This document shows positions 4,689-61,265 of a stretch of DNA of 64,000 bases, in pieces. The position numbers and the translations under genes were made by a program. A model generated the notes under the pieces. It made no database searches, had not been told where the DNA came from, and saw only the letters and a list, made by a program, of their open reading frames with translations. The stretch's first letter is position 1. Each line of letters starts with the position of its first letter. Source of the DNA: Escherichia phage BAU.Micro_ELP-22; sequence record OR699282.2, one strand, 5' to 3'.

Positions 4689-4884
4689 AGACGTTTCATT
4701 TTTACAGGCCGCAGGGGGTCAAAAAAATTTCCGCTGAAAAACATGCTAAGGTATATGTTTAATATAAAGTTTTATATTGTGTTTTTCAGAGTACAGTCCA
4801 TGTTTCCTGAAACAAAAAATACCCCGCCCCCGCAACGTGCTCCTTATATTGGAGTTTACCTTATTAATTATAGTAGAGATTAAG

Positions 4885-6475: not shown

Positions 6476-6476
6476 A

Positions 6477-7384: not shown

Positions 7385-7386
7385 TA

Positions 7387-7878: not shown

Positions 7879-8296
7879 AGCAAAAGAACTACAGGTATAT
7901 ATTGAAGATATCAAGGCTGGGAAGTTCGAAGAAGTATACAAAGCCGAGAATGGTAACTACTACAAGGATAGTGATTTTGCTACAACTACAGTTATTCTTG
8001 GGTTGAATTCCAAAAGTCCCGCAGATTTTTCACAATACAATCCAGATGCAGAATTTATCAGTTATGCTTATGGTGGTGAAATCCGTTTTTATAATCGCAG
8101 CAGACCTTTAAAATTGAACTTTGAAGTACTGAAAGGTCCGTGGGATAGTGAAGAGTATTACTTTCAGAATAGTACTTTGTATGATGATGAAGTACTAGAT
8201 ACTTTAGTTATTATGTGGTACTTTAAAAGTATTGATAGTACAAGGTTTTATTTGGATTATGAATATGTACGTGCCGAACATAAGGGTAAACGATGA
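7853..8296 (+). CDS. hypothetical protein, FQ-motif family (EEYYFQ/WYFK subgroup)
   Basis: 147-aa ORF; N-term MSLQSALDKAKELQ; motif LKGPWDSEEYYFQNSTLYDDEVLDTLVIMWYFKSID. Confidence 0.7.
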   Translation: MSLQSALDKAKELQVYIEDIKAGKFEEVYKAENGNYYKDSDFATTTVILGLNSKSPADFSQYNPDAEFISYAYGGEIRFYNRSRPLKLNFEVLKGPWDSEEYYFQNSTLYDDEVLDTLVIMWYFKSIDSTRFYLDYEYVRAEHKGKR

Positions 8297-12829: not shown

Positions 12830-13306
12830 ATGTCCAAAGACCTATCATTTAGCAATGCACAAAAAATAGCAAAAGACATTATCAGGGTTTATAAATTCCT
12901 TGCGAATGTTACTGAAGATTTTTCCGTGGGGGAACATAAAGTTATTAAACGAAATGGATACCTTTCATTTATGGATGGGTTACTCTATAGTTCAGATGAA
13001 TCAACTTGTAGCATTAGAGTACTTGATGAAGTACCAAGTGGTGATTTTATTTCATACCATTTTCCAAGTTCAGATAATTTCAAATACTACAATCATCTTC
13101 TTATAAATGAAGCATTTAATACGATTGTAATTAACACTGAAGAAGAGTTCTTCCAGTACAGTACTGTGTATCCAGAGAGGATTGTTTTCAGTTCAGTGAT
13201 TTTAACAGCCCTTAAAAATGAACTAAATTCCGATAGTGATCATTTCTACTTGGACCTGAACAATGTCGATTGTATTATTGAGTACCTGGAGAAAAATGGT
13301 TTATGA
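12830..13306 (+). CDS. hypothetical protein, FQ-motif paralog family
   Basis: 158-aa ORF; motif TEEEFFQYSTVYPERIVF. Confidence 0.65.
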   Translation: MSKDLSFSNAQKIAKDIIRVYKFLANVTEDFSVGEHKVIKRNGYLSFMDGLLYSSDESTCSIRVLDEVPSGDFISYHFPSSDNFKYYNHLLINEAFNTIVINTEEEFFQYSTVYPERIVFSSVILTALKNELNSDSDHFYLDLNNVDCIIEYLEKNGL

Positions 13307-13788
13307 TTACTACAGAATATGATTACTATGGTGTTTTAGAATTTACAGAAAATATCTATCGCATTGCAAAGGAGTTCAGAAGTCCTAAGCCTTTTGGTGG
13401 AATGCCTTTTGGTGGTATGTTTCAATACGATGAGTTCAGTTCATCTAAAGGAAGACTAGCATTTACTAATGGTAGAGGTAATCAAATCTACGCGGAGTAC
13501 TTTGATGATAATGACTTTCATTACAAAGCCGAATACATTTCATATTGCCCTGGGTCTGATTTGAAGATTAATATTGATACATTTAGAGAAGCAGTATTTG
13601 TTCCGTATAATGATTTAGTCTTCATGTCAGAGGAAATGTACTTTCAGGGTTCTTGTATTCATGATGTAAAAGTACTTAATGCTATGTTATTTTATGGTGC
13701 ACTACTTAATCATTACAAATACAATCAACGATTCTTTTTAGATTTAGCAGTCTACTATAAATGCGTGGATTATTTGAATGCAAAATAA
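13303..13788 (+). CDS. hypothetical protein, FQ-motif paralog family
   Basis: 161-aa ORF; motif SEEMYFQGSCIHDVKVLN. Confidence 0.65.
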   Translation: MITTEYDYYGVLEFTENIYRIAKEFRSPKPFGGMPFGGMFQYDEFSSSKGRLAFTNGRGNQIYAEYFDDNDFHYKAEYISYCPGSDLKINIDTFREAVFVPYNDLVFMSEEMYFQGSCIHDVKVLNAMLFYGALLNHYKYNQRFFLDLAVYYKCVDYLNAK

Positions 13789-14140
13789 GAAAACAATTCA
13801 GTACATGACGGATGGCAATGAATGCTTTGCTTCAAGATATGAATTCAACAAGAACCATTTCGTAACCTATATCCCTGAATATAATCAGTTTTATCTACAG
13901 ATTTACCAAAATGATTCATATATGAATGAGATATATTCTGAAATAAAAATCCTGGATTATAGTACTTTATCAGAAGAGGAATTGTTTCAGCAGAGCACTA
14001 TCAGTACTGAAGATGTGTATGAAATAATGGAATACCAGAAGGTACTTAAATATTTCCATGAAGTTCAGGATATACAAATGGATAGTGTTAAAGCGTGGAA
14101 TTATAACACATACGAGGTAAATTATGTTCGAAATGATTAA
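13778..14140 (+). CDS. hypothetical protein, FQ-motif paralog family
   Basis: 120-aa ORF; motif SEEELFQQSTISTEDVYE. Confidence 0.6.
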   Translation: MQNKKTIQYMTDGNECFASRYEFNKNHFVTYIPEYNQFYLQIYQNDSYMNEIYSEIKILDYSTLSEEELFQQSTISTEDVYEIMEYQKVLKYFHEVQDIQMDSVKAWNYNTYEVNYVRND

Positions 14141-14537
14141 AATTATGCAACGATGTATTGTAGACCAACACGGGATATATGGATATAGTTTAAGTGCTCC
14201 TATTGACAAAAATAAAACAACCTATGTAAGCTATAATGCTGTACAAGGATTTGATATATTCATTGATGCCAACAATAAAATCAAACAAGCTAAGGATGTG
14301 TCTATAATGACCCCTGACGAGCTATTTCAGTACAGCTTAGTTCTGCCTACCTGTATTGATTTACAACGTCTAGGAGCTATACAGAAGGTTTTACGCGAAC
14401 ATAAAGTACAACCCAATAAAGTCACACACATTCCAGAAACAATCTTCAAAACCATAGAAGTAGAAACTCCTGATTATATGTTAAGTGATGATGAGTACTA
14501 CGAGAAACACTTCCCTGGTAAAGTTTGGAGAGACTAA
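14124..14537 (+). CDS. hypothetical protein, FQ-motif paralog family
   Basis: 137-aa ORF; motif TPDELFQYSLVLPTCIDL. Confidence 0.6.
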   Translation: MFEMIKIMQRCIVDQHGIYGYSLSAPIDKNKTTYVSYNAVQGFDIFIDANNKIKQAKDVSIMTPDELFQYSLVLPTCIDLQRLGAIQKVLREHKVQPNKVTHIPETIFKTIEVETPDYMLSDDEYYEKHFPGKVWRD

Positions 14538-15019
14538 TGAACCGAAAGTACAGAGAAACTATGAAGTTCGCTAAGGAGTGTTTAGAGACAGTTGATTTCA
14601 TTTTCGATAACAAAGACTCACTGGGTCATCACTTCGTAATTACAAAGAAAGAAGATAAGAGATACAAGTGTGAAAGATTAGGATACAGTATTGAGTTCTC
14701 CTTAATGATTGATGGAATGATAAACTCCTTATATGAATGTGGTAAGACTGATTACCTTTCATTTAGATCATGGAGTGAAGGTATCATGTTCTTGAGAACA
14801 AATGGAGTTTTATATCCGTTTCTTGATGATTTATCAGAAGAAAGTTACTTTCAAAATAGTTTAATTTACACAGAAAAAGAACTCAAGATGCTATTCATTA
14901 TGTCGTACTTTAAAAAGTACTGCAATTTTAAATCATTATCTTTTGAGATCTCTGCAATGAAAGTATTCATTAAAAATGTAAAAGAATTAAAGAGGATTTA
15001 CGATGTACATAGAAAATGA
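14525..15019 (+). CDS. hypothetical protein, FQ-motif paralog family
   Basis: 164-aa ORF; motif SEESYFQNSLIYTEKELKMLFIMSYFK. Confidence 0.65.
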   Translation: MERLMNRKYRETMKFAKECLETVDFIFDNKDSLGHHFVITKKEDKRYKCERLGYSIEFSLMIDGMINSLYECGKTDYLSFRSWSEGIMFLRTNGVLYPFLDDLSEESYFQNSLIYTEKELKMLFIMSYFKKYCNFKSLSFEISAMKVFIKNVKELKRIYDVHRK

Positions 15020-31038: not shown

Positions 31039-31314
31039 ATGAATTATAAAGTTCTACAATATACATACAGTGTTTTGTTTGATTTACATCACAATGGAAG
31101 ATATCTCAATACAATACGAGAAAACACATTCACTCATACTATCTGGATTAATCACTTAATAATGATACGTGAATATTTTGTTAATAGTGAGATAATCATT
31201 CGTGGTAAAAAACAGAAGATAGAACAAGTTAATAGTTTTGGTGGTAAATTAGTACTATCATTTATAGATAGTAATACTAATGAAAGATATAGTATAGATT
31301 TGGTGGACATATGA
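31039..31314 (+). CDS. hypothetical protein, small paralog family 2
   Basis: 91-aa ORF; N-term LQYTYSVLFDL pattern shared with the next six genes. Confidence 0.6.
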   Translation: MNYKVLQYTYSVLFDLHHNGRYLNTIRENTFTHTIWINHLIMIREYFVNSEIIIRGKKQKIEQVNSFGGKLVLSFIDSNTNERYSIDLVDI

Positions 31315-31577
31315 ATTATAAAGATTTCCTACTAACATACAAGATTATTCGAGATTTAGCACACGACAATGATAGCCCTAGTCTAGAAGACACATGCACT
31401 GAAATGATTCATACAATTCGTGGTAAGATTAAAAAAAAATTCAGTACTGTTATTATTGGTGATGACCATGCAGAATTTTCTGATATAATCATTAGACGTG
31501 ATGGTAAAGTTGAGGTTCAGTACTACACTGATTTTGGATTTACCAGTATTCCGTTGGAGATATTCCCTTGGGATTAA
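31311..31577 (+). CDS. hypothetical protein, small paralog family 2
   Basis: 88-aa ORF; LLTYKIIRDL N-term. Confidence 0.6.
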   Translation: MNYKDFLLTYKIIRDLAHDNDSPSLEDTCTEMIHTIRGKIKKKFSTVIIGDDHAEFSDIIIRRDGKVEVQYYTDFGFTSIPLEIFPWD

Positions 31578-31879
31578 ATTTAAATGATATACAATTCACT
31601 TATAAGATCCTATATGATTTGTATGATGTATACCTTGTTAGTAACAAAATAGGTTCACATAACCCATACAAAGAACAACCATTTATTGATTTATATATTG
31701 AGTACTTAGATTCAGTAGGTGAATATATAAAAAAGAATTACAGTACTTTTATCGATGGAAATGATAAATTCGATTTCTATGGTGTGCAATCATATAATGG
31801 TATAATCCATGTTCAATTTCAGGAAATAACCGATAGGGGATTTATCGAGATTAAAGTTGTGAAGTTGGTGAATTTATAA
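31568..31879 (+). CDS. hypothetical protein, small paralog family 2
   Basis: TTG start per ORF track; IQFTYKILYDL N-term. Confidence 0.5.
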   Translation: MGLNLNDIQFTYKILYDLYDVYLVSNKIGSHNPYKEQPFIDLYIEYLDSVGEYIKKNYSTFIDGNDKFDFYGVQSYNGIIHVQFQEITDRGFIEIKVVKLVNL

Positions 31880-31889
31880 GAGGTTACAT

Positions 31890-32201
31890 ATGTTATTAAA
31901 TGATATACAATTCACATACAAATTTTTGTATATCCAATACGCTACGGTTGATGCTGGAGAATATCTCTACAGTGAAATCTATCGTTCGGTATGGATAAAG
32001 TTTTTGGATGAATTACATGATTATTACCATGATTTGTGTATAGTTCGTGATAATAAAATATACAAATTCCGCGATATTGTTAGTCATAGCGGTAAGCTAC
32101 GATTGGAATTAAGTACTGATAGTGATGTTGATTGGATTGGTGTAAATTTACTGGAATTGAAGAATGAAAAACAACTTAAAGGAAATACAAGTATTTTATA
32201 A
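31890..32201 (+). CDS. hypothetical protein, small paralog family 2
   Basis: 103-aa ORF; IQFTYKFLY N-term. Confidence 0.6.
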   Translation: MLLNDIQFTYKFLYIQYATVDAGEYLYSEIYRSVWIKFLDELHDYYHDLCIVRDNKIYKFRDIVSHSGKLRLELSTDSDVDWIGVNLLELKNEKQLKGNTSIL

Positions 32202-32448
32202 ATTCTTATACTTATCATATGTAAAAGATGAGTACTATGAAAGTGTGTATTATTTTTTATGGCAACATTACCGTACTATAGTAAGAGATTTATATATAGG
32301 AAAATCTATCATATCCAATGGTGAAAAATGTATCTGTACGGATGTAGTTAGTTTTAATGGTTCTTTAACATTGTGTTTCAGATGCGATAATAATAGTGGA
32401 TCATTTTCATTAAACGTATATCAGTTAGAAGGAATAAATTTTGAATAA
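32164..32448 (+). CDS. hypothetical protein, small paralog family 2
   Basis: 94-aa ORF; IQVFYKFLYL N-term. Confidence 0.55.
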   Translation: MKNNLKEIQVFYKFLYLSYVKDEYYESVYYFLWQHYRTIVRDLYIGKSIISNGEKCICTDVVSFNGSLTLCFRCDNNSGSFSLNVYQLEGINFE

Positions 32449-34707: not shown

Positions 34708-34732
34708 AGGCCAGCGTTTGCTGGTCTTTTTT
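34708..34732 (+). terminator. rho-independent terminator
   Basis: GGCCAGC-gttt-GCTGGTC hairpin followed by TTTTTT. Confidence 0.7.
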
Positions 34733-35634: not shown

Positions 35635-36320
35635 TTAAAGATTTAGATAGAATTTTATATGTACTAAGGGGTGTAATTACATTACATCCACAAATCAATC
35701 GAATTGAAAGTACATTTCAGTTGGAGTCAAGAGAAACTCCATATTCACATATATCAAATGTAGTTGGTTCACTCAGTACTGAAGACTCGTCTTACGATAT
35801 TTGTGTATGTGAAGTACAACCAAGTTCGGATCTTGGATTTGCTATTTTTGATAAAGATCAAAATCTCATTAGTATGTTTCAGTGCAATAATCCTTTTTGG
35901 AAAACATGCCTGTATCCAGAGTGGGCTATGCTTGATCCAACCAAGAGTACCATTAAAGTTTATGACTCTAAAAATGATGAAGTCGTTATTGATTTGGATG
36001 AGTCAATGTCAGAGGAAGAACACTTTCAGCTAATGATGATGCGTGCTATGCCGGAATACAATGCAATGATTAACACTGTGCAATACATTAAGGATACCAT
36101 GCCAGCGTTGCGTACACATGAGTTTTGTCATCCGGTATTGTATGAACATCTAGATTTAGACTTCAGTACTATTAAATTTAAAGATAGTGTTAAAAAATAT
36201 ATTCAAGAGAATGTTAAATTTGATTTTATTAGTACTATGAACAATAATCCAAAAACTAATTTTAGGCATCAGTACAATGAATCTTTGTCTAATGGACGTG
36301 ATACCAGTTGGTGGAAATAA
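35631..36320 (+). CDS. hypothetical protein with FQ-like motif
   Basis: 229-aa ORF; motif SEEEHFQLMMMRAMPEY. Confidence 0.55.
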   Translation: MIKDLDRILYVLRGVITLHPQINRIESTFQLESRETPYSHISNVVGSLSTEDSSYDICVCEVQPSSDLGFAIFDKDQNLISMFQCNNPFWKTCLYPEWAMLDPTKSTIKVYDSKNDEVVIDLDESMSEEEHFQLMMMRAMPEYNAMINTVQYIKDTMPALRTHEFCHPVLYEHLDLDFSTIKFKDSVKKYIQENVKFDFISTMNNNPKTNFRHQYNESLSNGRDTSWWK

Positions 36321-36321
36321 T

Positions 36322-36585
36322 ATGAATATTCAAGATAGATTACAATTACTGTACACACTTGAACAGGCTGCTTATGATCTTGTTCGAAAAATCTCAGATG
36401 AACTACCTAAAGGAACTAAAGTTCGTGTACGTGAGATGAATTATTTTTCTGGAGTAATTGAAGAACAAGTACTAACAGTGAATAAAGTAACATACTATGA
36501 ATCTGAGTTGTCTATTCAGTGTGAATCTGATGATGGATTAATATCATATTATGGAACTGATGTAGATATAGAGGTAATAAAATGA
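36322..36585 (+). CDS. hypothetical protein, small paralog family 3
   Basis: ATG 36322 preferred over track start 36277; core DELPKGTKVRVREMNYFSGVI. Confidence 0.5.
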   Translation: MNIQDRLQLLYTLEQAAYDLVRKISDELPKGTKVRVREMNYFSGVIEEQVLTVNKVTYYESELSIQCESDDGLISYYGTDVDIEVIK

Positions 36586-37724
36586 CCCTTTTGCAAATAT
36601 ATGAAGATTTAATGCACTTATGTAATACAAACGATGCATTCTTTTATGTGGATCATAAAAGTCCTGCTGGTGGCACGTATCGTGTATTCAGTTATCGTCT
36701 AGCATCATACACTGATTTCATGCAACCAAATGCGTTGGAAACCCGTGGCTCTATGTGGGAAATTGATGAAGAAGGTGAAATGATACGTTGTGCAGCACGT
36801 ACAATGAAAAAGTTCTTCAATGCTTACGAGAATCCTGCTACAATGTTCCCTGCTAACACCACATGCGATGACATTGCGGTAGTGATGCCTAAGTTGGATG
36901 GTTCGATTATCAGTACTTACCGTGATAATGATGGTGAGATTCGTTGTAAATCACATACTGCATTGTATTCTGACCATGCGATTAACAGTACTCGACTTAT
37001 TAACGAGAACCAGAATTTGTATCAGTACATCGACGAAGCGGAACGTTTAGGTTACACAGTTAATATGGAGTATACAAGCCCAGAGTACCGAATTGTATTA
37101 CCATATCAGGTAGAACAACTGTTTGTACTGAACGTTCGTCATCGTGTGAGTGGTGAGTTGCTATGTGGTAAAGCACTACGTGATAAGTTTCCATGTCTTG
37201 CACAGTACAGTACTAATATGACTGGAAAAGATATTCATCACACTTTTCCGGTACGAAATACCTTCCGTGAAAGCGTGGAGGAAGTTCATAAAATGCTTGA
37301 TATTGAGGGTTTTGTGTGCATCCTAAATAATGGGACAATGTGTAAAATAAAGACTGACTGGTACAGTTCATTACATCTTACAAAAGATAGTATTATTATT
37401 GATTCTCATTTATATGAAGCAGTATTAAATGGTTCAAGTGATGATTTAAAACAATTGTTCAGTACTGATGAATATGCTATGCAAAAGATATTAAGAATGG
37501 AACAATTGGTATTTTCGTGCTATAATGCATTACAAGATGAAGTAGAAAGCTTCGTCAAGGAACACAAGCACTTGGAGCGAAAGGAATTCGCAATGAAGGT
37601 TCAGGAGTGTTTAACTAATGAACTGAATCGTCAGGGCTTGGCCTTTGCAATGTATAACAATAAGAAAGTTGATTACAAAGAGACTCTTATAAAATACATG
37701 AAAATTGTACTAAAGGATTTTTAG
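36582..37724 (+). CDS. rnlA: RNA ligase 1
   Basis: 380-aa ORF aligning from memory with T4 RnlA: FFYVDHKSPAGGTYRVFSYRLASY...ALETRGSMWEIDEEGE...KKFFNAYENP and nucleotidyl-transfer lysine motif KLDGS. Confidence 0.85.
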   Translation: MTLLQIYEDLMHLCNTNDAFFYVDHKSPAGGTYRVFSYRLASYTDFMQPNALETRGSMWEIDEEGEMIRCAARTMKKFFNAYENPATMFPANTTCDDIAVVMPKLDGSIISTYRDNDGEIRCKSHTALYSDHAINSTRLINENQNLYQYIDEAERLGYTVNMEYTSPEYRIVLPYQVEQLFVLNVRHRVSGELLCGKALRDKFPCLAQYSTNMTGKDIHHTFPVRNTFRESVEEVHKMLDIEGFVCILNNGTMCKIKTDWYSSLHLTKDSIIIDSHLYEAVLNGSSDDLKQLFSTDEYAMQKILRMEQLVFSCYNALQDEVESFVKEHKHLERKEFAMKVQECLTNELNRQGLAFAMYNNKKVDYKETLIKYMKIVLKDF

Positions 37725-37754
37725 TACTATCTAGCCTAAGCACAAGGAGAAGTG

Positions 37755-38009
37755 ATGGCTAAACCTAAGTATAAAAATGACGGTTCCCTTTCTCCGACTG
37801 AGTTCAGGAAAATACAAGAAGAAATCGATGAATTACAGCACAAACGCTCAATGAAAGGTGTGAAGATAAGTAAGAAACGAATCGAGAATACCTTCGGATG
37901 TAGTAGTACTGAATACAAGAAGAAAAGGAAACCAAAAGGTGTTAAGCCGAGAATACATGATGTAACTCGCTATACATCGAAACGTGAAAATAAATTCGAC
38001 CCACTATAA
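37755..38009 (+). CDS. small basic hypothetical protein
   Basis: ATG 37755 with AAGGAG RBS; lysine/arginine-rich. Confidence 0.5.
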   Translation: MAKPKYKNDGSLSPTEFRKIQEEIDELQHKRSMKGVKISKKRIENTFGCSSTEYKKKRKPKGVKPRIHDVTRYTSKRENKFDPL

Positions 38010-38018
38010 GGAGTTCAT

Positions 38019-38255
38019 ATGAAAGTTGAAGTTCAGCATAGTATTGTTCAGGATATGTCAGTAGTTAAATTTCTTTCCTTGAAAGATTATTTCAGATGTA
38101 TCAAGTTCCTAGAAGAATCTCAATTACAGTGGACCCCATTAAAGTACAGTTCATCCAATGATACTGCTAGTATTCGTTGTGATGAATCTGTACTTGTGAA
38201 AATCTCCAAGCGATTTGGGATTGGGAAATACAATGATAAACAATGCACAAAGTAA
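38019..38255 (+). CDS. hypothetical protein
   Basis: 78-aa ORF. Confidence 0.45.
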   Translation: MKVEVQHSIVQDMSVVKFLSLKDYFRCIKFLEESQLQWTPLKYSSSNDTASIRCDESVLVKISKRFGIGKYNDKQCTK

Positions 38256-38544
38256 TTTACTATATATAAAGTCAGTAGAAGCTGAAATTAAAAATTCAGT
38301 ACAAACTATCGTCGATGAAATGATTGACAAATACAAGAGCAATCTTATTGGGAAGAAAGTCAGATGTTGGGATTACACATTCAAACACTGGTACGATTCC
38401 GAGATTGTGAAAGTTGATGTGAATACTGATAGTAATGGTCTAATTAATGGTATTGCGTATATTGGTGTTTTAATACGCAAGGGAACACCACAGGAATGGC
38501 TAACTTATCATAATATAGAGCATGTTAAATTTTTAGAGGATTAA
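38233..38544 (+). CDS. hypothetical protein, small paralog family 3
   Basis: ATG 38233 preferred; core KSNLIGKKVRCWDYTFKHWYDSEIVKVDV. Confidence 0.5.
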   Translation: MINNAQSNLLYIKSVEAEIKNSVQTIVDEMIDKYKSNLIGKKVRCWDYTFKHWYDSEIVKVDVNTDSNGLINGIAYIGVLIRKGTPQEWLTYHNIEHVKFLED

Positions 38545-38547
38545 AGG

Positions 38548-39480
38548 ATGCCAACTATCACACTAACAGTTGGATTGCCTGGGTGTGGTAAAACTACATG
38601 GGCAGTGCAAGAGATTAAAAACGCCAAATCCAAGACTATCAACATCAACCGTGATGATATTCGTGAATCTATGGCTGGGTCACATGATGCTTACAAATTC
38701 AACGATGCTAATGAGAAGTACGTAACTAATTTACAGTTCAGTGCAGCAAATTCAGCAGCAGAGAATGGTTGGAACATCATCATATCCGATACGAACCTTA
38801 AACAACATTTCCGTAATCTATGGAAAGTATGGGCTAAAGATAATGGCTATGATTACAAAGAAAAGAACTTCTATGATGATTTTGTACCTAATGAAGACCG
38901 TGGTGCAGATGTTCATGAATTCTTTAAGATTAAAGAGTTCGTAAAACTTTGCAAGAAATATAATCTCCAGCGTGAGCGTTCAGTACAAGATAATATCATT
39001 GACACTATGGCAGATACGTACTATTATAGTAAAGCATTGCACATTGGTTACTATGGTAATTCACGAGAAGCTGCTATTATCGTTGATATCGACGGTACTC
39101 TTGCTCATAAATGGGGTCGTAATCCTTACGATGAAAGTACTGTTCTTCAGGATACACCTGATGAAGAAGTTATTTTGTCTATTATCGCTGAAGCAGTTTT
39201 TCATAAACGCAAGATTATCGTCATGAGTGGGCGTACTGAAGGGTGTCGTGCTGATACCGAACAGTGGCTTAAGAATTGGGGTGTTCCTTACGATGCATTG
39301 TTTATGCGAGATATCGATGATAAACGTCCTGATGATGTTGTAAAATTCGACCTGTACATGAAAAATGTGGTTGATCATTACGATGTTAAAAAGGTATATG
39401 ATGACCGCGATCAAGTTGTATTCATGTGGCGTAAACTACTTGGGTTGAAAGTTTTCCAAGTGGCTGAAGGAAATTTCTAA
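38548..39480 (+). CDS. pseT: polynucleotide 5'-kinase/3'-phosphatase
   Basis: Walker A P-loop GLPGCGKTTW at N-terminus; HAD-type phosphatase motif VDIDGTLA; tail DDRDQVVFMWRKLLGLKVFQVAEGNF parallels T4 Pnk C-terminus. Confidence 0.85.
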   Translation: MPTITLTVGLPGCGKTTWAVQEIKNAKSKTININRDDIRESMAGSHDAYKFNDANEKYVTNLQFSAANSAAENGWNIIISDTNLKQHFRNLWKVWAKDNGYDYKEKNFYDDFVPNEDRGADVHEFFKIKEFVKLCKKYNLQRERSVQDNIIDTMADTYYYSKALHIGYYGNSREAAIIVDIDGTLAHKWGRNPYDESTVLQDTPDEEVILSIIAEAVFHKRKIIVMSGRTEGCRADTEQWLKNWGVPYDALFMRDIDDKRPDDVVKFDLYMKNVVDHYDVKKVYDDRDQVVFMWRKLLGLKVFQVAEGNF

Positions 39481-39484
39481 TACA

Positions 39485-39516
39485 AAAGGGATCATATATT
39501 GGTCCCTTTTTCTTTT
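39485..39516 (+). terminator. rho-independent terminator
   Basis: AAAGGGATC-atatatt-GGTCCCTTT hairpin followed by T-run. Confidence 0.65.
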
Positions 39517-39705
39517 AAGGTACATTATAGTGAATGTAACAACACAGATGTTATTACGAAAAGACTACTTAGAAAATATAGAACGATACTATAGATTGTC
39601 TTTGTATGAAAATAAGCATAAAAATTATAGTTTTGATAAACTACTAAATTCCAGTACTGATGATTATCTATTTTCATCAATGTTTTATGTGAGAGGTTTA
39701 TTATA

Positions 39706-39966
39706 ATGGATAAATTTCACACAGATATAACACAGATAGGTAATCTTATCAATAGTCTAATTACTGATTTAGAAGAAAAGTACTTAGGTCGAAATGTATA
39801 CGTAGAAATGTATGAAACATATGGTGTTATTGATATGATTTATTACAGTGCATTGAAGTGTGAAATACGTTTAACAATATGTTTGTTTGAAAAAAATACA
39901 TTCAACAGAAGTACTGCAATTCGCCAAGTTGGAGTTGATGATATAGAATTATACGAGGAACAATAA
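39706..39966 (+). CDS. hypothetical protein, small paralog family 3
   Basis: 86-aa ORF; core LITDLEEKYLGRNVYVEMYE. Confidence 0.55.
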   Translation: MDKFHTDITQIGNLINSLITDLEEKYLGRNVYVEMYETYGVIDMIYYSALKCEIRLTICLFEKNTFNRSTAIRQVGVDDIELYEEQ

Positions 39967-40217
39967 TGTTTGAGCAGGACTTAGAGATATTCAAAAGTCA
40001 TATTGATTACTTGACTATATTAGAAAATGATTTAACTACAAAGTACAAAGGCATTCGTGTTCTGTGCTGGTATGATGATTGGGATTATAAACGTGAACTC
40101 ACGATTGATCGAATTTATTTCAGTGACGGTGTACTAAATGTACATGGTGTAAATGATTTTGGTCATTCATATACATATTCTAATAATGCTAAATTTAAAA
40201 GGATCTACAATGAATGA
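39966..40217 (+). CDS. hypothetical protein, small paralog family 3
   Basis: 83-aa ORF; core LENDLTTKYKGIRVLCWYDDWDY. Confidence 0.55.
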   Translation: MFEQDLEIFKSHIDYLTILENDLTTKYKGIRVLCWYDDWDYKRELTIDRIYFSDGVLNVHGVNDFGHSYTYSNNAKFKRIYNE

Positions 40218-42649: not shown

Positions 42650-42900
42650 TGTTCAACACTGACTTATCACATTTGCGATATCTTATGTCTTTGGCTGATG
42701 ATTTTATAAATGATCTGAAGCCAAAATATATTGGTCAAGAAGTACGATTAATAAACTCCAGAGGGTATGGAAAGTATATTATTACTGATATGTATATTAG
42801 TGGTGGTGAATGGCGTTTTAAAATTAATACTTATCTTAAAGATGGTTCTTTTGCTGGAACACAAGTTACTAAACACACTAATATTATATGGTTGGAGTAA
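42649..42900 (+). CDS. hypothetical protein, small paralog family 3
   Basis: 83-aa ORF; core INDLKPKYIGQEVRLINSRGYGKYIITDMY. Confidence 0.55.
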   Translation: MFNTDLSHLRYLMSLADDFINDLKPKYIGQEVRLINSRGYGKYIITDMYISGGEWRFKINTYLKDGSFAGTQVTKHTNIIWLE

Positions 42901-42902
42901 TA

Positions 42903-43646
42903 ATGAAACACTTCTTAGAAGTAACTGTACCTGATGATAAAGATTTATACATTGTAGGTGATTTGCATGGTAATGGTAAACTATGGGATGCTACAGTGAA
43001 AGAATTTGGTATTACACACAATGATTATGTTTTCAGTGTAGGTGATATTATCGACCGTGGAGAACAAAATTCAAAGCTCCTTTTTGAATTTTTGTTCGGA
43101 GAAAATCGTTACATGATTGCGGGTAATCATGAGATGATGTGCGTTGATTCGGAAACACTTCGAGATTGGTATCATTGTTGGATAAGTAATGGTGGTGATA
43201 AATTCCTTGATGAAGTTGGAGGAACAGGCATTCAATTCTTTCGTCAGTACTTAAAGGATCTCCCTATGATTATCCAAATCAATCACCGAGGATTGAAGAT
43301 TGGGTTAGTTCATGCTGGAGTTCCGTTGGAATATACAACATGGGAACGATTTGTTAATGGGACAAAATCACTTAGTGCTGATATAATTGATAAGTGCTTG
43401 TGGGATAGAAAAACATTCGATTATTGTAGAACTAATAATACATATTATGCACCTAAGTTAGATGGAGTGCATTGTGTCTTTAGTGGACATACAGCAGTTA
43501 CAGACCCACTCATTTACGGTAATCGCATTTGGATTGATAGTCAGTTCTTGACGGGTGACTTAACTCTCGCTACTCCACAAAGTGGTGGGATGAGATATTT
43601 ACGTAAAGAAAAAGATGAGTACTCATTCAATCGTTTCAAAAGGTAA
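42903..43646 (+). CDS. Ser/Thr protein phosphatase (PPP-family metallophosphoesterase)
   Basis: Motifs GDLHGN, GDIIDRGE, GNHEMM in canonical order; ATG 42903 with GGAG RBS preferred over track start 42888. Confidence 0.75.
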   Translation: MKHFLEVTVPDDKDLYIVGDLHGNGKLWDATVKEFGITHNDYVFSVGDIIDRGEQNSKLLFEFLFGENRYMIAGNHEMMCVDSETLRDWYHCWISNGGDKFLDEVGGTGIQFFRQYLKDLPMIIQINHRGLKIGLVHAGVPLEYTTWERFVNGTKSLSADIIDKCLWDRKTFDYCRTNNTYYAPKLDGVHCVFSGHTAVTDPLIYGNRIWIDSQFLTGDLTLATPQSGGMRYLRKEKDEYSFNRFKR

Positions 43647-43651
43647 TAATT

Positions 43652-43921
43652 ATGCATGATGTAGTTAAAAAATATTTGAATGATAGATATATTATGAAAA
43701 AATCTATTAATTCTATCCTAAAAGACCATGCAAATCAAATACGTGAGATTCTATCAAATAAACTTATTGGTTGTTCAGTTGAGTTCAACTACAAAAAGAA
43801 TGTCGTGAAGGTTGGAGTTATTAAACGTGTAGTTGCTGTTTATGACCAAGATGTATATGTTGAAATAGAATATGATGATAAATTATCACAATTAAGTACT
43901 GAAGATTTAACATTTTTATAA
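43652..43921 (+). CDS. hypothetical protein, small paralog family 3
   Basis: 89-aa ORF; core LSNKLIGCSVEFNYKKNVVKVGVI. Confidence 0.55.
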   Translation: MHDVVKKYLNDRYIMKKSINSILKDHANQIREILSNKLIGCSVEFNYKKNVVKVGVIKRVVAVYDQDVYVEIEYDDKLSQLSTEDLTFL

Positions 43922-43931
43922 GGAAATAGAA

Positions 43932-44159
43932 ATGAAAGTAATTCAAGTTATGGTAGAAAAATACCAAACTGAAGATGGTCGTATTTTTGATTCAGCTAAA
44001 CAAGCTGAACACCATGAACGTATTATTTCTGGTGCACGTAAAGTATGTCCTACATGTAATGGAACACAACAAGTACCGTCAGAAGATTACCGCAGCTTTT
44101 ATGCTTGTCCACACTGTGATGGTAAAGGGTTTTTAGAAAAACAAGAGGTATGGAAATGA
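43932..44159 (+). CDS. small zinc-ribbon protein
   Basis: 75 aa; CPTCNG ... CPHCDG (two CxxC pairs, DnaJ-like zinc finger spacing). Confidence 0.5.
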   Translation: MKVIQVMVEKYQTEDGRIFDSAKQAEHHERIISGARKVCPTCNGTQQVPSEDYRSFYACPHCDGKGFLEKQEVWK

Positions 44160-44569
44160 AATTGTATTGCTTAACTAATATGTACTGTCAAGGTGTCCAA
44201 GCTGGCATTCAAGCATTCCATGCTGGTGTTAAACTAATTAAAGAGTATGAAGGTTCTGCTTTCAGTACTATTATTGATGAATGGTACTATGAACACGAAA
44301 CTATTGTAGTACTAAATGCTGGTGGACATGATAAGTTAAATTCTTATTATAACAACCTTAGCAAACAGGGAAAAGTTCCGTTTGCCAAATTCAATGAAGC
44401 TGGATTGAATGATGCTATTACCTGTGTAGCAGTACTGTGTACGTCTGAAATGATTGAAGACATGGCTGTTATGCGTATGAATCTTCCTGCTGGTGATCAA
44501 CTAATGCAAGTAAAATATGGTGCATTGTTTGACACATTAAAAGCAATCAGCACAATGAGGACAATTTGA
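44150..44569 (+). CDS. hypothetical protein
   Basis: 139-aa ORF. Confidence 0.5.
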   Translation: MEMKLYCLTNMYCQGVQAGIQAFHAGVKLIKEYEGSAFSTIIDEWYYEHETIVVLNAGGHDKLNSYYNNLSKQGKVPFAKFNEAGLNDAITCVAVLCTSEMIEDMAVMRMNLPAGDQLMQVKYGALFDTLKAISTMRTI

Positions 44570-45768
44570 TGGATTTTCCAGAGAAGTTATTTGTTGCACG
44601 TTCCTATGTAAACCACAACCAAGTTGATGGTTTTATTATCGATGCAACAAAATCACATACAAAAGCGTTTGAAACAAAGAAAGAGAGAGCAGAGTACTGG
44701 GCAAAGAAGAACAATCTTCCATCGTTATATATTGACAACGTTCCAACTACGGGATTTTGTGTAGTTGATAAATTAACAACTCATGCACGAGAAACATATT
44801 TCACGATCCGTCACCCAGAAGGATTTGAATTTATGATTAGTGCAAAAAACATGAATGATTTAATTATCAATAACGATATAATCAAAGGTGTTTTTGTAGA
44901 CCCAATGTTTTTCAACAATAACTTAGAATTAATTAATGGTAAAACAAAAACGTTTGCTAAGTTAGTTGAAAAAGAAAATAAAAAAGAACAACAAAAAGAA
45001 ACTGTAGCAGGTCTTAAAGTTGGTGATGGTTTCACTTATCTTAAAGAAGATTACTATTACTGCGGTAAAGTACATGCAATTTGTATAAAGAAAACTAAAG
45101 AATTTGCATATCCAGACAAAAGTTCAGTTTATCATTTACTTTTTAACAGTACTCGTGGAACTTATGCATTGAATCAACGTTTGGATAATTACAATCTTGA
45201 ACCTCGTGCACTCTTGAATAAGAAGACTACAGCAGATGAAGAAATTAAACTTGCTAATGAATTTTGGCAAAGCTATAGAACAAACAGACATAACCCATTA
45301 GGTGAATCTAACATTCCAGTACTGGTACACAATAAATCATTTAAAGCAAAAGACCTTAAAATTAAATACGAAGAAATAAATGTTGATGATCTTATGAATA
45401 ATGGACGTTTCAACGAGAACGTACCATTTATGACTAAAGATAATGAACAAACATATCGCGTATTTTTTGGTGTAAGTAATAATACAACGCGTAGTTATTA
45501 TGGGCGTAGTGGAGATTATAATATCCATTATAATGATAAATTTGAACGCTTTAGTGCATATCCAGTTCAAATTGATGATAATGGGATTATGGTAATGGAT
45601 GTTGATATTAATGAACACTCATCATTTAGTACATGGAATGGCTATCGTTCCCCATTCTTCCCACCAAATGAACGCAAAACATCAAGCACTCGTTACTACC
45701 AAGACAAACCATGTCACGTTCAACTATCAATTAGTAATCCACTTTATATTGGAAAGTATTATCTATAA
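44566..45768 (+). CDS. hypothetical protein
   Basis: 400-aa ORF, lysine-rich central segment; no recognisable motif. Confidence 0.6.
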   Translation: MMDFPEKLFVARSYVNHNQVDGFIIDATKSHTKAFETKKERAEYWAKKNNLPSLYIDNVPTTGFCVVDKLTTHARETYFTIRHPEGFEFMISAKNMNDLIINNDIIKGVFVDPMFFNNNLELINGKTKTFAKLVEKENKKEQQKETVAGLKVGDGFTYLKEDYYYCGKVHAICIKKTKEFAYPDKSSVYHLLFNSTRGTYALNQRLDNYNLEPRALLNKKTTADEEIKLANEFWQSYRTNRHNPLGESNIPVLVHNKSFKAKDLKIKYEEINVDDLMNNGRFNENVPFMTKDNEQTYRVFFGVSNNTTRSYYGRSGDYNIHYNDKFERFSAYPVQIDDNGIMVMDVDINEHSSFSTWNGYRSPFFPPNERKTSSTRYYQDKPCHVQLSISNPLYIGKYYL

Positions 45769-45779
45769 AGGAATATACA

Positions 45780-47198
45780 ATGAGCATTTTAGCAATTCTT
45801 GAAAGCATTAAAAATACTAGCAGTACTCTGGGCAAAAAGGCTATTCTTGAACAAAATAAAGATAATGTAACTTTACAAAAAGTACTGAAATATACACTAG
45901 ACCCTTCTATCGTAAGTGGCTATAAGAAGCTCCCTGACGCTGATGACGTATATCAACATATGACGTTAGATGAAGCAATTGATAAGCTAGAATGCATTTA
46001 CAAGCGTGATGTGACAGGAAATGCGGGGCGTGATTTCATTGCTTCAGTACTGGGTTCTGTATCAGAAGATGACCAAGAAGTTCTTCGTAAAATGCTCACG
46101 AAGAACCTTGATTGTGGTATTCAAGAAAAGAACTGCAATGATGTATTTGGTAAAGGATTCATCAAAGACGAACCATATATGCGTTGTTCTTTGATTGACA
46201 AAAAGACTGCAAAGAACATCAACTTCAAAGATTATGGTTACGCTATATCAGAAGTGAAAATGGATGGTCAGTACTTGAACCACGTTGTCATTAATGGTTC
46301 ATTAACTTCTACATCCCGTAATGGTAAACTATACGACTTCCTGGGTTGTCGTGATGGTGAGATGGCAGGTCTTGCTCACATCATCCAAAGTAAAGATGAA
46401 CGTTTTAGTAGTGGTGTGGTCTTTATGGGGGAAGGTGTAGTACTGGACAATGATGGAGAAACCATTCTCCCACGCACTACTGGCAACGGTATAATTCAGA
46501 AAGCTGGTAAAGATAGCATCAGTCAGAATGAAGCAATGCGTACTGTATTCGTTCTATGGGATGTTGTTCCATATGATGCATTTTGTGAAGGTGTATGGGA
46601 TGTAAAACGTAAAGAACGTCGCGAGATCTTAGTAGATGCAATTAACGAACTCAATAGTGATTTTGTTCGTATGGTTGGATTCCGTAAAGTTCTAAACATC
46701 AAAGAAGCATTTGAGTACAATAGTGAACTAATGAACGAAGGTGAAGAGGGTTCAGTACTGAAATGCGAAGATGGTATCTGGAAATCTCACACTTCTCCTA
46801 AGCAGTTGAAAATGAAACTTAAGATGCAATTGGATTTGCGTATTGTTGGTTTCAATGAAGGTGAAGGGAAGCGTAAAGGTAGCCTTGGTTCTTTACAACT
46901 GGAAAGTGCATGTGGCACATTGAAAGTTAATGTAGGTACAGGCATCCGTGAAAAAGATGCCGAATGGACGTTTAAAACCATTTGGGAAAGAATGCAAGAA
47001 CTTATTGGTAAAGTGGTTACAGTTGAGTGTAATGACATTGTATTCGAGAAGCGTACTGGTGAGCCATCACTGTTCTTACCAGTGTTTATTGAATTTAGAT
47101 TTGACAAAAACACTTGTGACGACTATACTCGTATTTTAGAAATTCGTGATAGTGCTGTTGAGGTGTTCTCAAACAGTATCATTGAATCACTTGGCTAA
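45780..47198 (+). CDS. ATP-dependent DNA ligase (T4 gp30-like)
   Basis: N-term ILAILESIKNTSSTLGKKAILEQNKDN parallels T4 ligase ILKILNEIASIGSTKQKQAILEKNKDN; adenylation lysine motif EVKMDGQ; LKMKLKMQLDLRIVGF near C-terminus. Confidence 0.85.
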   Translation: MSILAILESIKNTSSTLGKKAILEQNKDNVTLQKVLKYTLDPSIVSGYKKLPDADDVYQHMTLDEAIDKLECIYKRDVTGNAGRDFIASVLGSVSEDDQEVLRKMLTKNLDCGIQEKNCNDVFGKGFIKDEPYMRCSLIDKKTAKNINFKDYGYAISEVKMDGQYLNHVVINGSLTSTSRNGKLYDFLGCRDGEMAGLAHIIQSKDERFSSGVVFMGEGVVLDNDGETILPRTTGNGIIQKAGKDSISQNEAMRTVFVLWDVVPYDAFCEGVWDVKRKERREILVDAINELNSDFVRMVGFRKVLNIKEAFEYNSELMNEGEEGSVLKCEDGIWKSHTSPKQLKMKLKMQLDLRIVGFNEGEGKRKGSLGSLQLESACGTLKVNVGTGIREKDAEWTFKTIWERMQELIGKVVTVECNDIVFEKRTGEPSLFLPVFIEFRFDKNTCDDYTRILEIRDSAVEVFSNSIIESLG

Positions 47199-47217
47199 AC
47201 ACTTATAGGAGGTAATT

Positions 47218-48009
47218 ATGAAATTTGTTGTAACGTCTGACGTACACGGTGGTACTGATTACCTCCATAGTGGTGATTACAGTGATACAGTACTGATTAT
47301 TGCTGGGGATTTTGATGAAGTTAAACGTAGTCGTTATCGTACTGGCATTGAATCCCTGTGTAAACAGTTTAAGAATGTAGTACTGGTTCCTGGCAATCAT
47401 GAATATTATGGTTCCAATATCCACAAAACGCATAAAGTACTGTCCGATATGCAAGATGAGATTCCAAATTTCATCTTTTTGCAAAACAAATTTGTATGGC
47501 TGGATGGAGTACTGCTTGTTGGTAGTACTCTGTGGACAGACTTCGATAAAGGTAATTCTTTGACGAAGTTTGATGCTTGTCAGAAGATGAACGATTACAA
47601 ACATATCCGTCATGGAACAACATCAGAGCCTTGGCGTAAGAAACTGACACCAGATGATACTGAGTTTATGCATCACAAAGATAAACAATTTATCAAAAAT
47701 TCTATTGACACAGTTCGCTTTATGCATGATAATGATTTCAAGGTCATCGTGGTTACCCATCACGCACCAAGTTATCAAAGTGTTTCACCAAAATATAAAA
47801 ATGATTCACTGAATGGTTGTTACTGTTCCGATATGGATCAGTACATTGAAGATTTGGGTGCTGATGTTTGGATTCATGGTCATGTTCATAGTAGCTTTGA
47901 CTACCACATTGGTAAGACACGTATCATTTGTAATCCACGAGGCTATGAATCATACAGTGGAGCTTGTGAGAATTTTGATTACAATCCTAAATTTGTATTT
48001 GAAATTTAA
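47218..48009 (+). CDS. calcineurin-like metallophosphoesterase
   Basis: Motifs VVTSDVHGG, IIAGDFDE, VPGNHEYYG, VVTHHAP, WIHGHVHSS. Confidence 0.75.
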   Translation: MKFVVTSDVHGGTDYLHSGDYSDTVLIIAGDFDEVKRSRYRTGIESLCKQFKNVVLVPGNHEYYGSNIHKTHKVLSDMQDEIPNFIFLQNKFVWLDGVLLVGSTLWTDFDKGNSLTKFDACQKMNDYKHIRHGTTSEPWRKKLTPDDTEFMHHKDKQFIKNSIDTVRFMHDNDFKVIVVTHHAPSYQSVSPKYKNDSLNGCYCSDMDQYIEDLGADVWIHGHVHSSFDYHIGKTRIICNPRGYESYSGACENFDYNPKFVFEI

Positions 48010-56601: not shown

Positions 56602-58041
56602 ATGAAAAAATATACAATTGACACAAACGTACTACTATCTGACCCTAATGCATCTATTGCTTTTGATGGTGCTGCAATCATTCTACCATTTACAGTACTG
56701 GAAGAATTGGATTCAATTAAGAGTCGTAATGTAGATGTTTCACGCGATGCTCGTGTTGCTATTCGTAACATTGAAGCAATTATTGCAGATGCATCACATG
56801 ATGAGATTAGTAGTACTGGTGTTAATATTGCTGATGTTCATACCAATATGAATCCTGATAGCAAATTGTTTGTTATTACAAACGAAGAAGCTGAAGCACT
56901 AATTCGTACTAAAGGTTCAGAAGAGAAAGTTCAAACCCTTCTCAAAAGCACAGTACCTGATGATAAAATCATTCTGGTAGCTTTAGCAACAGAATCAGTA
57001 CTGGTAACTCGTGATATCAACATGCGTATCAAAGCACTAAGTTATGGTGTCGAGGTACAAGATTATCGCCATGATATTGTTATTGGTGATAGTGATTTGA
57101 TTCACATTGGTCAACACCATTTGGAAATTAATTTTTGGGAAGTATATAGCAACTTAACCAATACTAATATTCAATCCGAACAAGTTGGTCGTCGTTTGTA
57201 TCATTACATTTCTAAAAGCTTGATTGAACATTTGCTTCCACAAAATCTATGCATCGGTGATTATCTATATGATGATGCAGACGTATTATTTGTGTACGAA
57301 GGTCAATCAGCAATTGAGGAAGATGATGGAACACTAACACCAGAAGATATTTTGGTATTCCAAGATATTGGACAATCAGTAGCTTTACGTGCTAAAGTAT
57401 GGGATATTAAAGCAAAGAATATCCAACAAGCACTCGCCATCAACAGTATTCTCGATCCTGATGTACATCTAACAGTACTGCTAGGTTCTGCTGGTACTGG
57501 TAAAACACTAATTACGATTGCTACTGCATTAGAATTAGTACTGGAAAAACGTAAATACGACCGAATCATCTTCTCTAAAACTCAAGACTCACAGTTTGAA
57601 GATATTGGTTTCTTGCCAGGTTCAGAAGCAGAAAAAGTGATTCCATTCTGTGGAGCCGCAATTGACGCGTTAGAGTTTCTTCATAAAGATGATGCTAACC
57701 CACAAGGTAGTATTGAAGAGATTATGAAACGTAATGTTATTCAATTTAAAGCACTAAACTTTGTACGTGGACGTTCATTCACCAACACTATTCTAGTAGT
57801 TGATGAATTCCAAAACATTACACCTGCACAAGCCAAAACAATCTTGACACGAGCAGGATTAAACTGTAAAGTAGTAATTATGGGTAACTTGAGTCAGATT
57901 GACAGTAAGTTTATTAGTCCTGTTAACAGTGGTTTGACATATGTAACTGAGAAGTTTAAAGATTGGGCAGGTTGTCGTGTCATCGAACTAGAAGGTGTTG
58001 TTCGTTCACCACTTGCAGAATTTGCTGAAGAAAATATGTAA
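56602..58041 (+). CDS. phoH: PIN-domain / PhoH-like ATPase fusion protein
   Basis: N-terminal PIN-like YTIDTNVLLSDP...LEELD; C-terminal Walker A LLGSAGTGKTLITIA and Walker B-like ILVVDEFQN. Confidence 0.75.
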   Translation: MKKYTIDTNVLLSDPNASIAFDGAAIILPFTVLEELDSIKSRNVDVSRDARVAIRNIEAIIADASHDEISSTGVNIADVHTNMNPDSKLFVITNEEAEALIRTKGSEEKVQTLLKSTVPDDKIILVALATESVLVTRDINMRIKALSYGVEVQDYRHDIVIGDSDLIHIGQHHLEINFWEVYSNLTNTNIQSEQVGRRLYHYISKSLIEHLLPQNLCIGDYLYDDADVLFVYEGQSAIEEDDGTLTPEDILVFQDIGQSVALRAKVWDIKAKNIQQALAINSILDPDVHLTVLLGSAGTGKTLITIATALELVLEKRKYDRIIFSKTQDSQFEDIGFLPGSEAEKVIPFCGAAIDALEFLHKDDANPQGSIEEIMKRNVIQFKALNFVRGRSFTNTILVVDEFQNITPAQAKTILTRAGLNCKVVIMGNLSQIDSKFISPVNSGLTYVTEKFKDWAGCRVIELEGVVRSPLAEFAEENM

Positions 58042-60293: not shown

Positions 60294-61265
60294 ATGAAAA
60301 CTAAAATTATTTCTGAACAAAAAATTGGCAATACTACAGTACTGAATCTTGAAGTTCAAGGTCTTAGTAATGTTCGTTCTCTTACGGTTTGTACTCAGAG
60401 AGATGATTTGACTGATTTCTATAGCTCAGAATACATGTCAGAAGAACCTTGGGATATGGGATGGTTGGACGGTAGTAGTTATATCAGTTCACGTTATAGT
60501 TTTGGTTCTCATGAAAATATTGAACAATTAAAAAATGAGTATATTAAACTCAGTGATACTATTGAAATGAAAGAAGAAGATTGTGTAGAACTTTTCATTT
60601 TTGAATTCGATGCCGGAAATGGTAATTCATTACTAGTAAGTAATATTGAAGAACATTTAATGTATCATGAAATTGAAGATGTAGATTTTGAAAGTATTAA
60701 AAATGTTGTTCATATGGTTGGTGGTAGTATTACTGATGATTCAGATATCGGTCATAATATTTCACTTTGCTTAATTTCTCATCCAAAAACTCGTGGTTTT
60801 AAAGTTCCACAAGATGAAACTTACGTGTCTGAAACTGCTGATGAAGGAATTTATCCTTGGAATGATTATGTAGAATACTATGGTCATTTCTGTTCTGATA
60901 CAAAAGAACTGAAAAAAGGCGAACAATATTTTGATATGTTCCGTGCTGCACAGCGTTTAGTACTGAATAATACTGAACTATTTCCTGATCGCGGCGAAGA
61001 AAATATGATTGATATTATCTTCAAGAACTATGATTATGTACAGAACATTCCTGATAATGTACATTTGGAATATGTTCACGGTTCTTCAAACAAATTCTAT
61101 AATATTGAATTGAATGCTCCAGTGTGTGAAGTAATTATTGAGTACGGTGCTATTGGTAAAACCAGTACTACTGATGGTGAAGAATTCGAAACTATTGAAG
61201 AAGCACGTAAGTTCTTCGAGAAGAAAGTAATTTCCAAAATTAAAAGTGGTTATAGCCCAAAATGA
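60294..61265 (+). CDS. hypothetical protein with C-terminal WGR-like domain
   Basis: C-terminal ~80 aa (YVHGSSNKFYNIELNAPVCEVIIEYGAIGKTSTTDGEEFETIEEARKFFEKKV) resembles the WGR domain of PARP-type proteins. Confidence 0.45.
   Translation: MKTKIISEQKIGNTTVLNLEVQGLSNVRSLTVCTQRDDLTDFYSSEYMSEEPWDMGWLDGSSYISSRYSFGSHENIEQLKNEYIKLSDTIEMKEEDCVELFIFEFDAGNGNSLLVSNIEEHLMYHEIEDVDFESIKNVVHMVGGSITDDSDIGHNISLCLISHPKTRGFKVPQDETYVSETADEGIYPWNDYVEYYGHFCSDTKELKKGEQYFDMFRAAQRLVLNNTELFPDRGEENMIDIIFKNYDYVQNIPDNVHLEYVHGSSNKFYNIELNAPVCEVIIEYGAIGKTSTTDGEEFETIEEARKFFEKKVISKIKSGYSPK

Follow-up and report, generated by a model that had tools for sequence, protein, structure and literature searches.

In phage T4, RNA ligase 1 (RnlA, gp63) and the bifunctional polynucleotide kinase-phosphatase PseT (Pnkp) form a heal-and-seal pathway of RNA repair (PMC11494293, PMC3592404). 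Equivalent pairs have been reported in jumbo phages. The paper describing the Klebsiella jumbo phage RaK2 (Alcyoneusvirus) presented gp464 and gp470 as RNA repair proteins and proposed a tRNA-repair pathway as early as 2013 (PMC3622015), the tRNA-repair/anti-Prr reading was in print for phAPEC6 in 2020 (PMC7247149), and a survey by Iyer et al. covers the RNA ligases and PNK-HAD enzymes of jumbo phages (PMC7824862). Outside phages, fungal Trl1 and bacterial Pnkp-Hen1 apply the same heal-and-seal logic, with a kinase, a phosphatase or phosphodiesterase and an ATP-dependent ligase, to breaks bearing a 2',3'-cyclic phosphate and a 5'-OH. Trl1 differs from the phage pair studied here in being a single polypeptide that requires a 2'-phosphate, and Pnkp-Hen1 in relying on a metallophosphoesterase and in adding a 2'-O-methyl mark; both are without the Rnl1 C domain. 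We have analyzed a stretch of 64,000 nucleotides of Escherichia phage BAU.Micro_ELP-22 (sequence record OR699282.2), called the window in what follows, which carries on the plus strand an rnlA homologue at 36582..37724 and a pseT homologue at 38548..39480. Their products probably constitute a two-enzyme RNA heal-and-seal module, homologous to T4 PseT plus RnlA and devoted to counter-defence repair of tRNA.

RNA ligase

The rnlA homologue codes for a protein of 380 amino acids that was recognized as an ATP-dependent RNA ligase of the Rnl1 family by Pfam, PHROG, PDB, sequence alignment and an AlphaFold2 (AF2) model. It has the same two-domain architecture as T4 RnlA, i.e. an Rnl1 adenylyltransferase (approximately residues 1-262) followed by the all-helical C-terminal domain specific to Rnl1 (approximately 268-380), which defines the clade and provides the tRNA specificity in T4 (PMC6379707). 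Both domains matched their Pfam models above the curated cut-offs (RNA_lig_T4_1, E-value 1e-15; T4_Rnl1_C, E-value 6.6e-17 at residues 268-379), and the protein also matched PHROG 562 (E-value 3.5e-109) and, by sequence, the crystal structure of T4 Rnl1 2C5U (E-value 1.1e-56). With T4 RnlA it shares 36% identity (E-value 2e-64). The AF2 model, obtained with 34 homologues, had a pLDDT (predicted local distance difference test) of 93.4 and was helical from residue ~259 to 377. When the model was compared by Foldseek the best matches were the T4 Rnl1 structures 2C5U, 5TT6 and 9DO4 (385-389 aligned columns, E-value ~1e-32), followed by fungal Trl1 ligases.

The essential residues of both enzymes were mapped from the authentic T4 genes, pairwise at first and then by family alignments of 119 ligases and 121 kinase-phosphatases. 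The ligase nucleophile is K104, located in a motif I (K-L-D106-G107) that corresponds to K99-E-D-G102 of T4 and has K, D and G invariant in the 119 sequences. The same complete conservation (119/119) was found for E163 of motif III, E242-G243 of motif IV and K255 and K257 of motif V, the counterparts of T4 E159, E227-G228, and K240 and K242. In the N-subdomain R55 and K77 are invariant as well, and F78 and F79 are kept in 118 and 117 of the 119 homologues (T4 R54, K75 and F76/F77). T4 Rnl1 uses R54, K75 and F76 to contact the gamma-phosphate and the adenine of ATP (PMC6379707). The residues of motifs I, III, IV and V and those at R54/K75/F76-77 are identical to T4 RnlA, from which the ligase differs by an extra segment of ~16 residues (~199-214) before motif IV.

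The other departure affects motif Ia, where T4 has S118-K119 and the ligase has S124-H125, i.e. the Ser is kept and the Lys replaced by His. Ser-Lys/Arg is a motif of the whole superfamily of covalent nucleotidyltransferases, and its basic side chain touches the nucleoside triphosphate (NTP) gamma-phosphate (step 1 of ligation) and/or the polynucleotide's 5'-phosphate (step 2) (PMC1807946). In the 119 homologues the basic position is occupied by H (46 sequences), K (41), Q (18) or N (14), and these are split by lineage. None of the 63 homologues with 55% identity or more to the query, all of them from the RaK2-like jumbo-phage clade, has Lys, whereas the 37 below 45% identity keep it without exception. 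Right beside the motif, K123 is invariant, and mutation of its T4 equivalent K117 is severe (PMC4797309). The change is a stable property of the clade and no sign of decay. Since the departure is common to 78 natural members that satisfy both of the Pfam Rnl1 models, we consider the ligase a member of the Rnl1 family by homology, as a variant sub-clade with a predicted activity. Motif Ia does not delimit the Rnl1 clade.

Polynucleotide kinase-phosphatase

The pseT homologue codes for 310 amino acids and was identified by Pfam, PHROG, PDB and alignment as a T4-type bifunctional polynucleotide 5'-kinase/3'-phosphatase. Its domain order is that of T4 PseT (1LTQ, ~300 amino acids), with an N-terminal P-loop 5'-kinase (approximately residues 1-165) and a C-terminal HAD-type 3'-phosphatase of the DxDxT kind (175-310). 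The Pfam models HAD_PNKP (residues 175-310, E-value 8.6e-44) and AAA_33 (residues 5-102, E-value 4e-13) and PHROG 505 (E-value 1.2e-95) were matched, and the T4 Pnkp structure 1LTQ could be aligned end to end (E-value 1e-39). The identity with T4 PseT was 34% (E-value 5e-48). An earlier interpretation of this DNA, the sequence-only reading, had named the two genes as RnlA and PseT homologues, and their homology to T4 gp63 and PseT is clear from these comparisons, in which the matches far exceed what chance would give.

The P-loop G9-L-P-G-C-G-K15-T16 is intact, with a Walker A ending in GKT where T4 has GKS. Across the 121 homologues the kinase residues K15, T16, D36, R39, E56, D81 and R142 are invariant or nearly so, and their T4 counterparts (K15, S16, D35, R38, E57, D85 and R126) are essential or important (PMC2831316). 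The same applies to the phosphatase residues D180-I-D182-G-T184, S227, K266 and D285-D286, which correspond to D165, D167, S211, K258 and D277-D278 of T4, with roles described in PMC3592404, and also to R191, R229, D262 and R287. Neither the ligase lysine nor the kinase P-loop, the two features on which the sequence-only reading had staked the identification, has been lost: K104, G9-T16 and D180/D182/T184 are all kept. The pairwise alignment placed Gln141 opposite T4 R126 as if this arginine were missing, which the family alignment explained by a one-residue insertion in T4, R142 being invariant (121/121). T4 R122 corresponds to Tyr138 here. Furthermore, the kinase domain contains an insertion of ~20 residues (~108-131, FYDDFVPNEDRGADVHEFFKIKEF) that members of the jumbo-phage clade share and that T4 and the more distant homologues lack.

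Gene order and selection

The ends of both ORFs (open reading frames) proved exact and the gap between them, described before as 0.8 kb, measures 823 nt. The genes are on the same strand and three small ORFs are located within the gap. On the other side, an acidic ORF of 102 amino acids (36277..36585, plus strand; PHROG 28139), with a weak positional homologue in RaK2 ORF463 (29% identity, E-value 6e-5), has its stop codon overlapping the rnlA start (ATGA; junction gaggtaataaaATGA). Both rnlA and pseT are preceded by GAGG-type ribosome-binding sites. A terminator-like hairpin (39484..39510, plus strand), made of an 11-bp stem and a T-run, begins 4 nt past the pseT stop codon and probably closes the transcription unit; the annotation of phage G17 has a terminator at the matching place. 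Together with a second terminator-like hairpin at 34708-34727 it brackets a co-directional block. The search for sigma-70-type promoters retrieved 46 versus 57 expected, that is, no enrichment.

The order rnlA, small ORFs, pseT is common to T4, RaK2, GAP32, a CBB-like phage and an uncultured relative, and the synteny, with healing and sealing enzymes together and in the same orientation, is kept in five jumbo-phage lineages. The T4 genes (rnlA, alc, pseT.3, pseT.2, pseT.1, pseT) are oriented as here, and the ligase gene is upstream of pseT on the same strand in both phages, although the one described here sits in a jumbo phage of 350 kb. No similarity was detected between the intervening ORFs of the jumbo phages and T4 alc, pseT.1, pseT.2 or pseT.3, or cd.3-cd.5 and denA on the flanks of the T4 block.

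The rnlA and pseT ORFs are intact in 35 related records. In the comparison with phage Turkey3 (~94% identical) the ratio of nonsynonymous to synonymous substitution rates (dN/dS) was 0.06 for rnlA and 0.08 for pseT, and both genes are evidently under strong purifying selection. The divergence from Turkey3 is mosaic: from 36200 to 37600, including the upstream ORF and rnlA, the identity was 83-93%, while from 37600 to 39800 it was 97-100%, and dS was 0.58 in rnlA and ~0.1 in the small ORFs and pseT. The recent recombination histories of the two enzymes are therefore separate, and the pattern suggests an exchange of alleles of the ligase segment within the genus.

In GAP32 and in the CBB-like phage a gene for Gad2 (PF26128, anti-Gabija) is found ~1.5 kb upstream of rnlA. 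Its presence just upstream suggests that the neighbourhood of rnlA is dedicated to counter-defence in these relatives. In the window no Gad2 equivalent was recognized at the corresponding place.

Small ORFs between the two enzymes

The number of small ORFs between the enzymes varies from three here to four in G17/121Q and five in RaK2. The one following rnlA (37752..38009, plus strand) codes for a very basic protein (isoelectric point 10.1, 24 K+R; PHROG 15306) of 85 amino acids from the GTG at 37752 or 84 from the ATG at 37755, and has a weak positional homologue in RaK2 ORF465 (E-value 1e-3). Next to it there is a conserved companion ORF of 78 amino acids (38019..38255, plus strand) with a predicted beta-beta-alpha-beta-beta-alpha fold, 67% identical to RaK2 ORF466. 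Its 35 homologue clusters come exclusively from RaK2-like jumbo phages, among them GAP32, fHe-Yen9-04, CBB, pEa_SNUABM_50 and phiKp_21/Muenster, or have no source name. In every lineage checked this ORF had its place between rnlA and pseT, and its cross-genus identity is 60-74%, versus 57-64% for RnlA and 53-58% for Pnkp. Phages of the GAP32 and CBB types show an overlap of 13 nt between this ORF and the pseT start, and it appears to be translationally coupled to pseT in some genera.

The last small ORF (38215..38544, plus strand; 109 amino acids from the TTG at 38215, annotated from 38234 in PBECO4) was taken from the ORF list and the records of relatives. It occupies a variable slot (38237-38546) just upstream of pseT, which contains this single ORF here. 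In G17/121Q it is filled by a divergent allele and one additional ORF, and Salmonella phage SD-15_S21 has lost it through a clean 310-bp deletion that fuses the first 72 codons of the 78-amino-acid ORF in frame to the full-length Pnkp, resulting in an ORF of 383 amino acids. The match is shortened in the same way in three sister SD records, and the Pnkp of some Salmonella relatives differs from T4 PseT in carrying this N-terminal fusion of 72 residues. We also considered the small ORFs around the pair as a paralogous family, which found no support in an all-versus-all BLASTP or in shuffle-controlled Smith-Waterman comparisons; a relationship (z = 25) was seen for the slot ORF with its G17 allele alone.

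Because the 78-amino-acid ORF is better conserved than either enzyme, lies between them and in some relatives is coupled to pseT or fused to Pnkp, the RNA-repair module of RaK2-like jumbo phages could be imagined as having three parts (or more), with this small protein as the extra component, an idea that we find rather improbable. As a partner the protein might target or regulate Pnkp, or it might compensate for the lost motif Ia lysine of the ligase, e.g. by presenting the 5'-phosphate end.

Relatives and source genome

From 36000 to 40000 the identity was 99.8% with Escherichia phage JP4, 99.3% with PBECO4 and 98.3% with phAPEC6. A total of 35 records match this region, all of them from jumbo phages of E. 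coli or Salmonella with sizes of 310-386 kb, and the best matches are Asteriusvirus records of 320-386 kb with an identity of 93-99.8%. We inspected four of the matching records: PBECO4, G17 and SD-15_S21 are classified as Asteriusvirus, in a taxonomy line that does not include Straboviridae, and the Turkey3 record gives no genus. T4-type phages match at the protein level only, with 32-40% identity. To judge from these relatives, the source is an Asteriusvirus jumbo coliphage of ~350 kb and not a member of the Straboviridae/Tevenvirinae. It had been described as a T4-like phage in the sequence-only reading, a view that we correct, as its nearest relatives are Asteriusvirus jumbo phages outside the T4-type class of ~160-250 kb. 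Nor can the RnlA/PseT pair anchor a T4-like identity, as was also proposed. Phage records with an Rnl1 homologue numbered 1,586, from many groups, those with a Pnkp homologue 1,964, and a pair so common in phages is therefore no such anchor. The practical value of the analysis is this correction, i.e. that the pair is unusable as a marker of T4-like phages.

The Asteriusvirus orthologues (phAPEC6/PBECO4) are 98-100% identical and the RaK2 pair gp464/gp470 is orthologous with 64% identity; RaK2, phAPEC6 and PBECO4 all have the gene arrangement found here, down to the conserved small ORF that separates the enzymes, and the differences are confined to how many small ORFs lie there and which ones. 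In the matching GenBank and RefSeq records the genes are labelled RNA ligase and polynucleotide kinase. Both the pair and the reading as tRNA repair are known and ordinary, and the finding as such matters little, as the genes are annotated in records 98-100% identical and the reading has been published. What seems to be new are minor details, namely the clade-wide substitution in motif Ia, the insertion in the Pnkp kinase domain, the variable slot, and the companion ORF, which is conserved and has a natural fusion. Possibly of interest for RNA-repair enzymologists would be an Rnl1 clade with a Lys-less motif Ia, the Pnkp insertion and a companion ORF that is sometimes fused.

Function of the pair

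By analogy with T4, the C-terminal HAD domain of Pnkp would strip the cyclic (2',3') or 3' phosphate from the broken RNA through an aspartyl-phosphate on D180, with D182 as general acid/base. The N-terminal P-loop kinase would phosphorylate the 5'-OH, the ATP being held by K15, T16 and R142, with D36 as the general base and R39 binding the acceptor. The ligase would then self-adenylylate on K104, pass the AMP to the 5'-phosphate and seal the nick, and its Rnl1-specific C domain would steer it to the anticodon loops of tRNA. Both genes would be co-transcribed in the co-directional block that ends at the terminator past pseT. Heal-and-seal repair of tRNA, as the sequence-only reading had it, is the best reading of the pair because the homologues keep all the catalytic residues and the order and orientation found in T4.

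Enterobacterial defences that cleave tRNA include PrrC170 and retron-Eco7 PtuAB (PMC11555353) as well as PARIS and P2-OLD (PMC12445682). For PrrC we used as probe a sequence validated by the PADLOC PrrC model (E-value 3e-148), and prrC loci were retrieved in Salmonella enterica (species representative; 93% amino-acid identity), where the gene adjoins hsdR, and in other enterobacteria. The Salmonella prrC DNA was searched against 5,426 complete E. coli genomes, which gives a lower bound since divergent PrrC/RloC are missed. A full-length prrC of the EcoPrrC type was found in six of these genomes, adjoining hsdR in each case. Five of the six were annotated as 'anticodon nuclease' and the other as 'hypothetical protein', and two were on plasmids; five further genomes had a partial, distant match. 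That the host deploys RNA-targeting defences, another claim made from this locus, is a reasonable general expectation that the locus does not demonstrate. The claim had leaned in part on a protein with PIN_4 and PhoH domains (PhoH2-like; 56602-58041, plus strand). The protein is real, a putative RNA helicase/RNase, but it is the product of a phage gene 17 kb away and is uninformative about the host; in PADLOC it showed only a weak, ATPase-level similarity to Nhi and AbiO.

Several considerations weigh against counter-defence repair of tRNA. The enzymatic activity, the tRNA substrate and the counter-defence role are all carried over by homology, and the activity of the ligase is predicted with slightly less certainty than that of a canonical Rnl1. 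[quoted passage not shown] Classical prrC is rare in E. coli and unlikely to be the main selective agent. In addition, the cuts made by P2-OLD are not correctly repaired by T4 ligases (PMC12445682).

The pair could instead be dedicated to general housekeeping, repairing or processing the phage's own RNAs (8 tRNAs or mRNAs) or, in a variant of the same idea, cleaning up the damage caused by phage RNases such as the PIN-PhoH protein, or by stress RNases, during the long infection of a jumbo phage. The closest phage, JP4, encodes 8 tRNAs (PMC12648861), the RaK2 authors connect the pair with the tRNAs of the phage itself (PMC3622015), and the rarity of prrC and the presence in the window of a PTH2-type peptidyl-tRNA hydrolase and the PIN-PhoH protein go in the same direction. 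We nevertheless regard this role as unlikely, given that the Rnl1 C domain, responsible for anticodon-loop specificity in T4 (PMC6379707), has been retained, that counter-defence is the only established biology of the enzyme pair (PMC11494293), and that neither tRNA genes nor Rfam families were found in the 64-kb window.

A dominant moonlighting or DNA role, with the ligase acting mainly to catalyse tail-fibre attachment in the manner of T4 gp63 and Pnkp healing DNA ends for the DNA ligase encoded 6 kb downstream, at 45780-47198, seems very improbable. T4 Pnkp does act on DNA ends in vitro, and the public annotation reads 'RNA ligase and tail fiber protein attachment catalyst'. However, this annotation was copied from T4, no sequence determinant of tail-fibre attachment is known and RaK2-like phages have a tail apparatus different from that of T4. 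Moreover, the ligase active site, except for motif Ia K119, is invariant in the 119 homologues, indicating selection for catalysis and not for a chaperone role. The replacement of Lys by His in motif Ia and the variable, deletion-prone DNA between the genes could also be read as signs of decaying relics without present function. The conservation data effectively exclude this: dN/dS is 0.06-0.08, the ORFs are intact in the 35 related records, the catalytic residues are invariant, and the His/Gln/Asn replacement is stable throughout the clade. Counter-defence repair of tRNA is the reading that we prefer.

Other genes in the window

A cluster of end-processing and tRNA-related genes is located at 42888-48009, 3-9 kb downstream of pseT. 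It comprises a lambda/NinI-like metallophosphoesterase (42888-43646), the PTH2-type peptidyl-tRNA hydrolase (44150-44566), a protein of 400 amino acids that starts right at the PTH2 stop (44566-45768; without a Pfam match or a PDB relative by sequence), the ATP-dependent DNA ligase already mentioned and a second metallophosphoesterase (47218-48009). Among the immediate neighbours of the pair there was no Pfam or PHROG match to the accessory RNA-repair enzymes RlaP nucleotidyltransferase and 2H phosphoesterase. Further downstream, 60294-61265 (plus strand) codes for a 323-amino-acid protein with a C-terminal WGR domain (Pfam E-value 1e-10) and no PHROG match. At the other end of the window, from ~200 to 24000 on the plus strand, there are more than 25 tandem ORFs of 150-200 amino acids, which an iterative profile search among the window ORFs joined in one large, highly diverged family of paralogues. 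Plain BLASTP reveals only sub-clusters of this family, e.g. those at 5984-8296, 13303-15019, 4777-5974 and 31039-32448.

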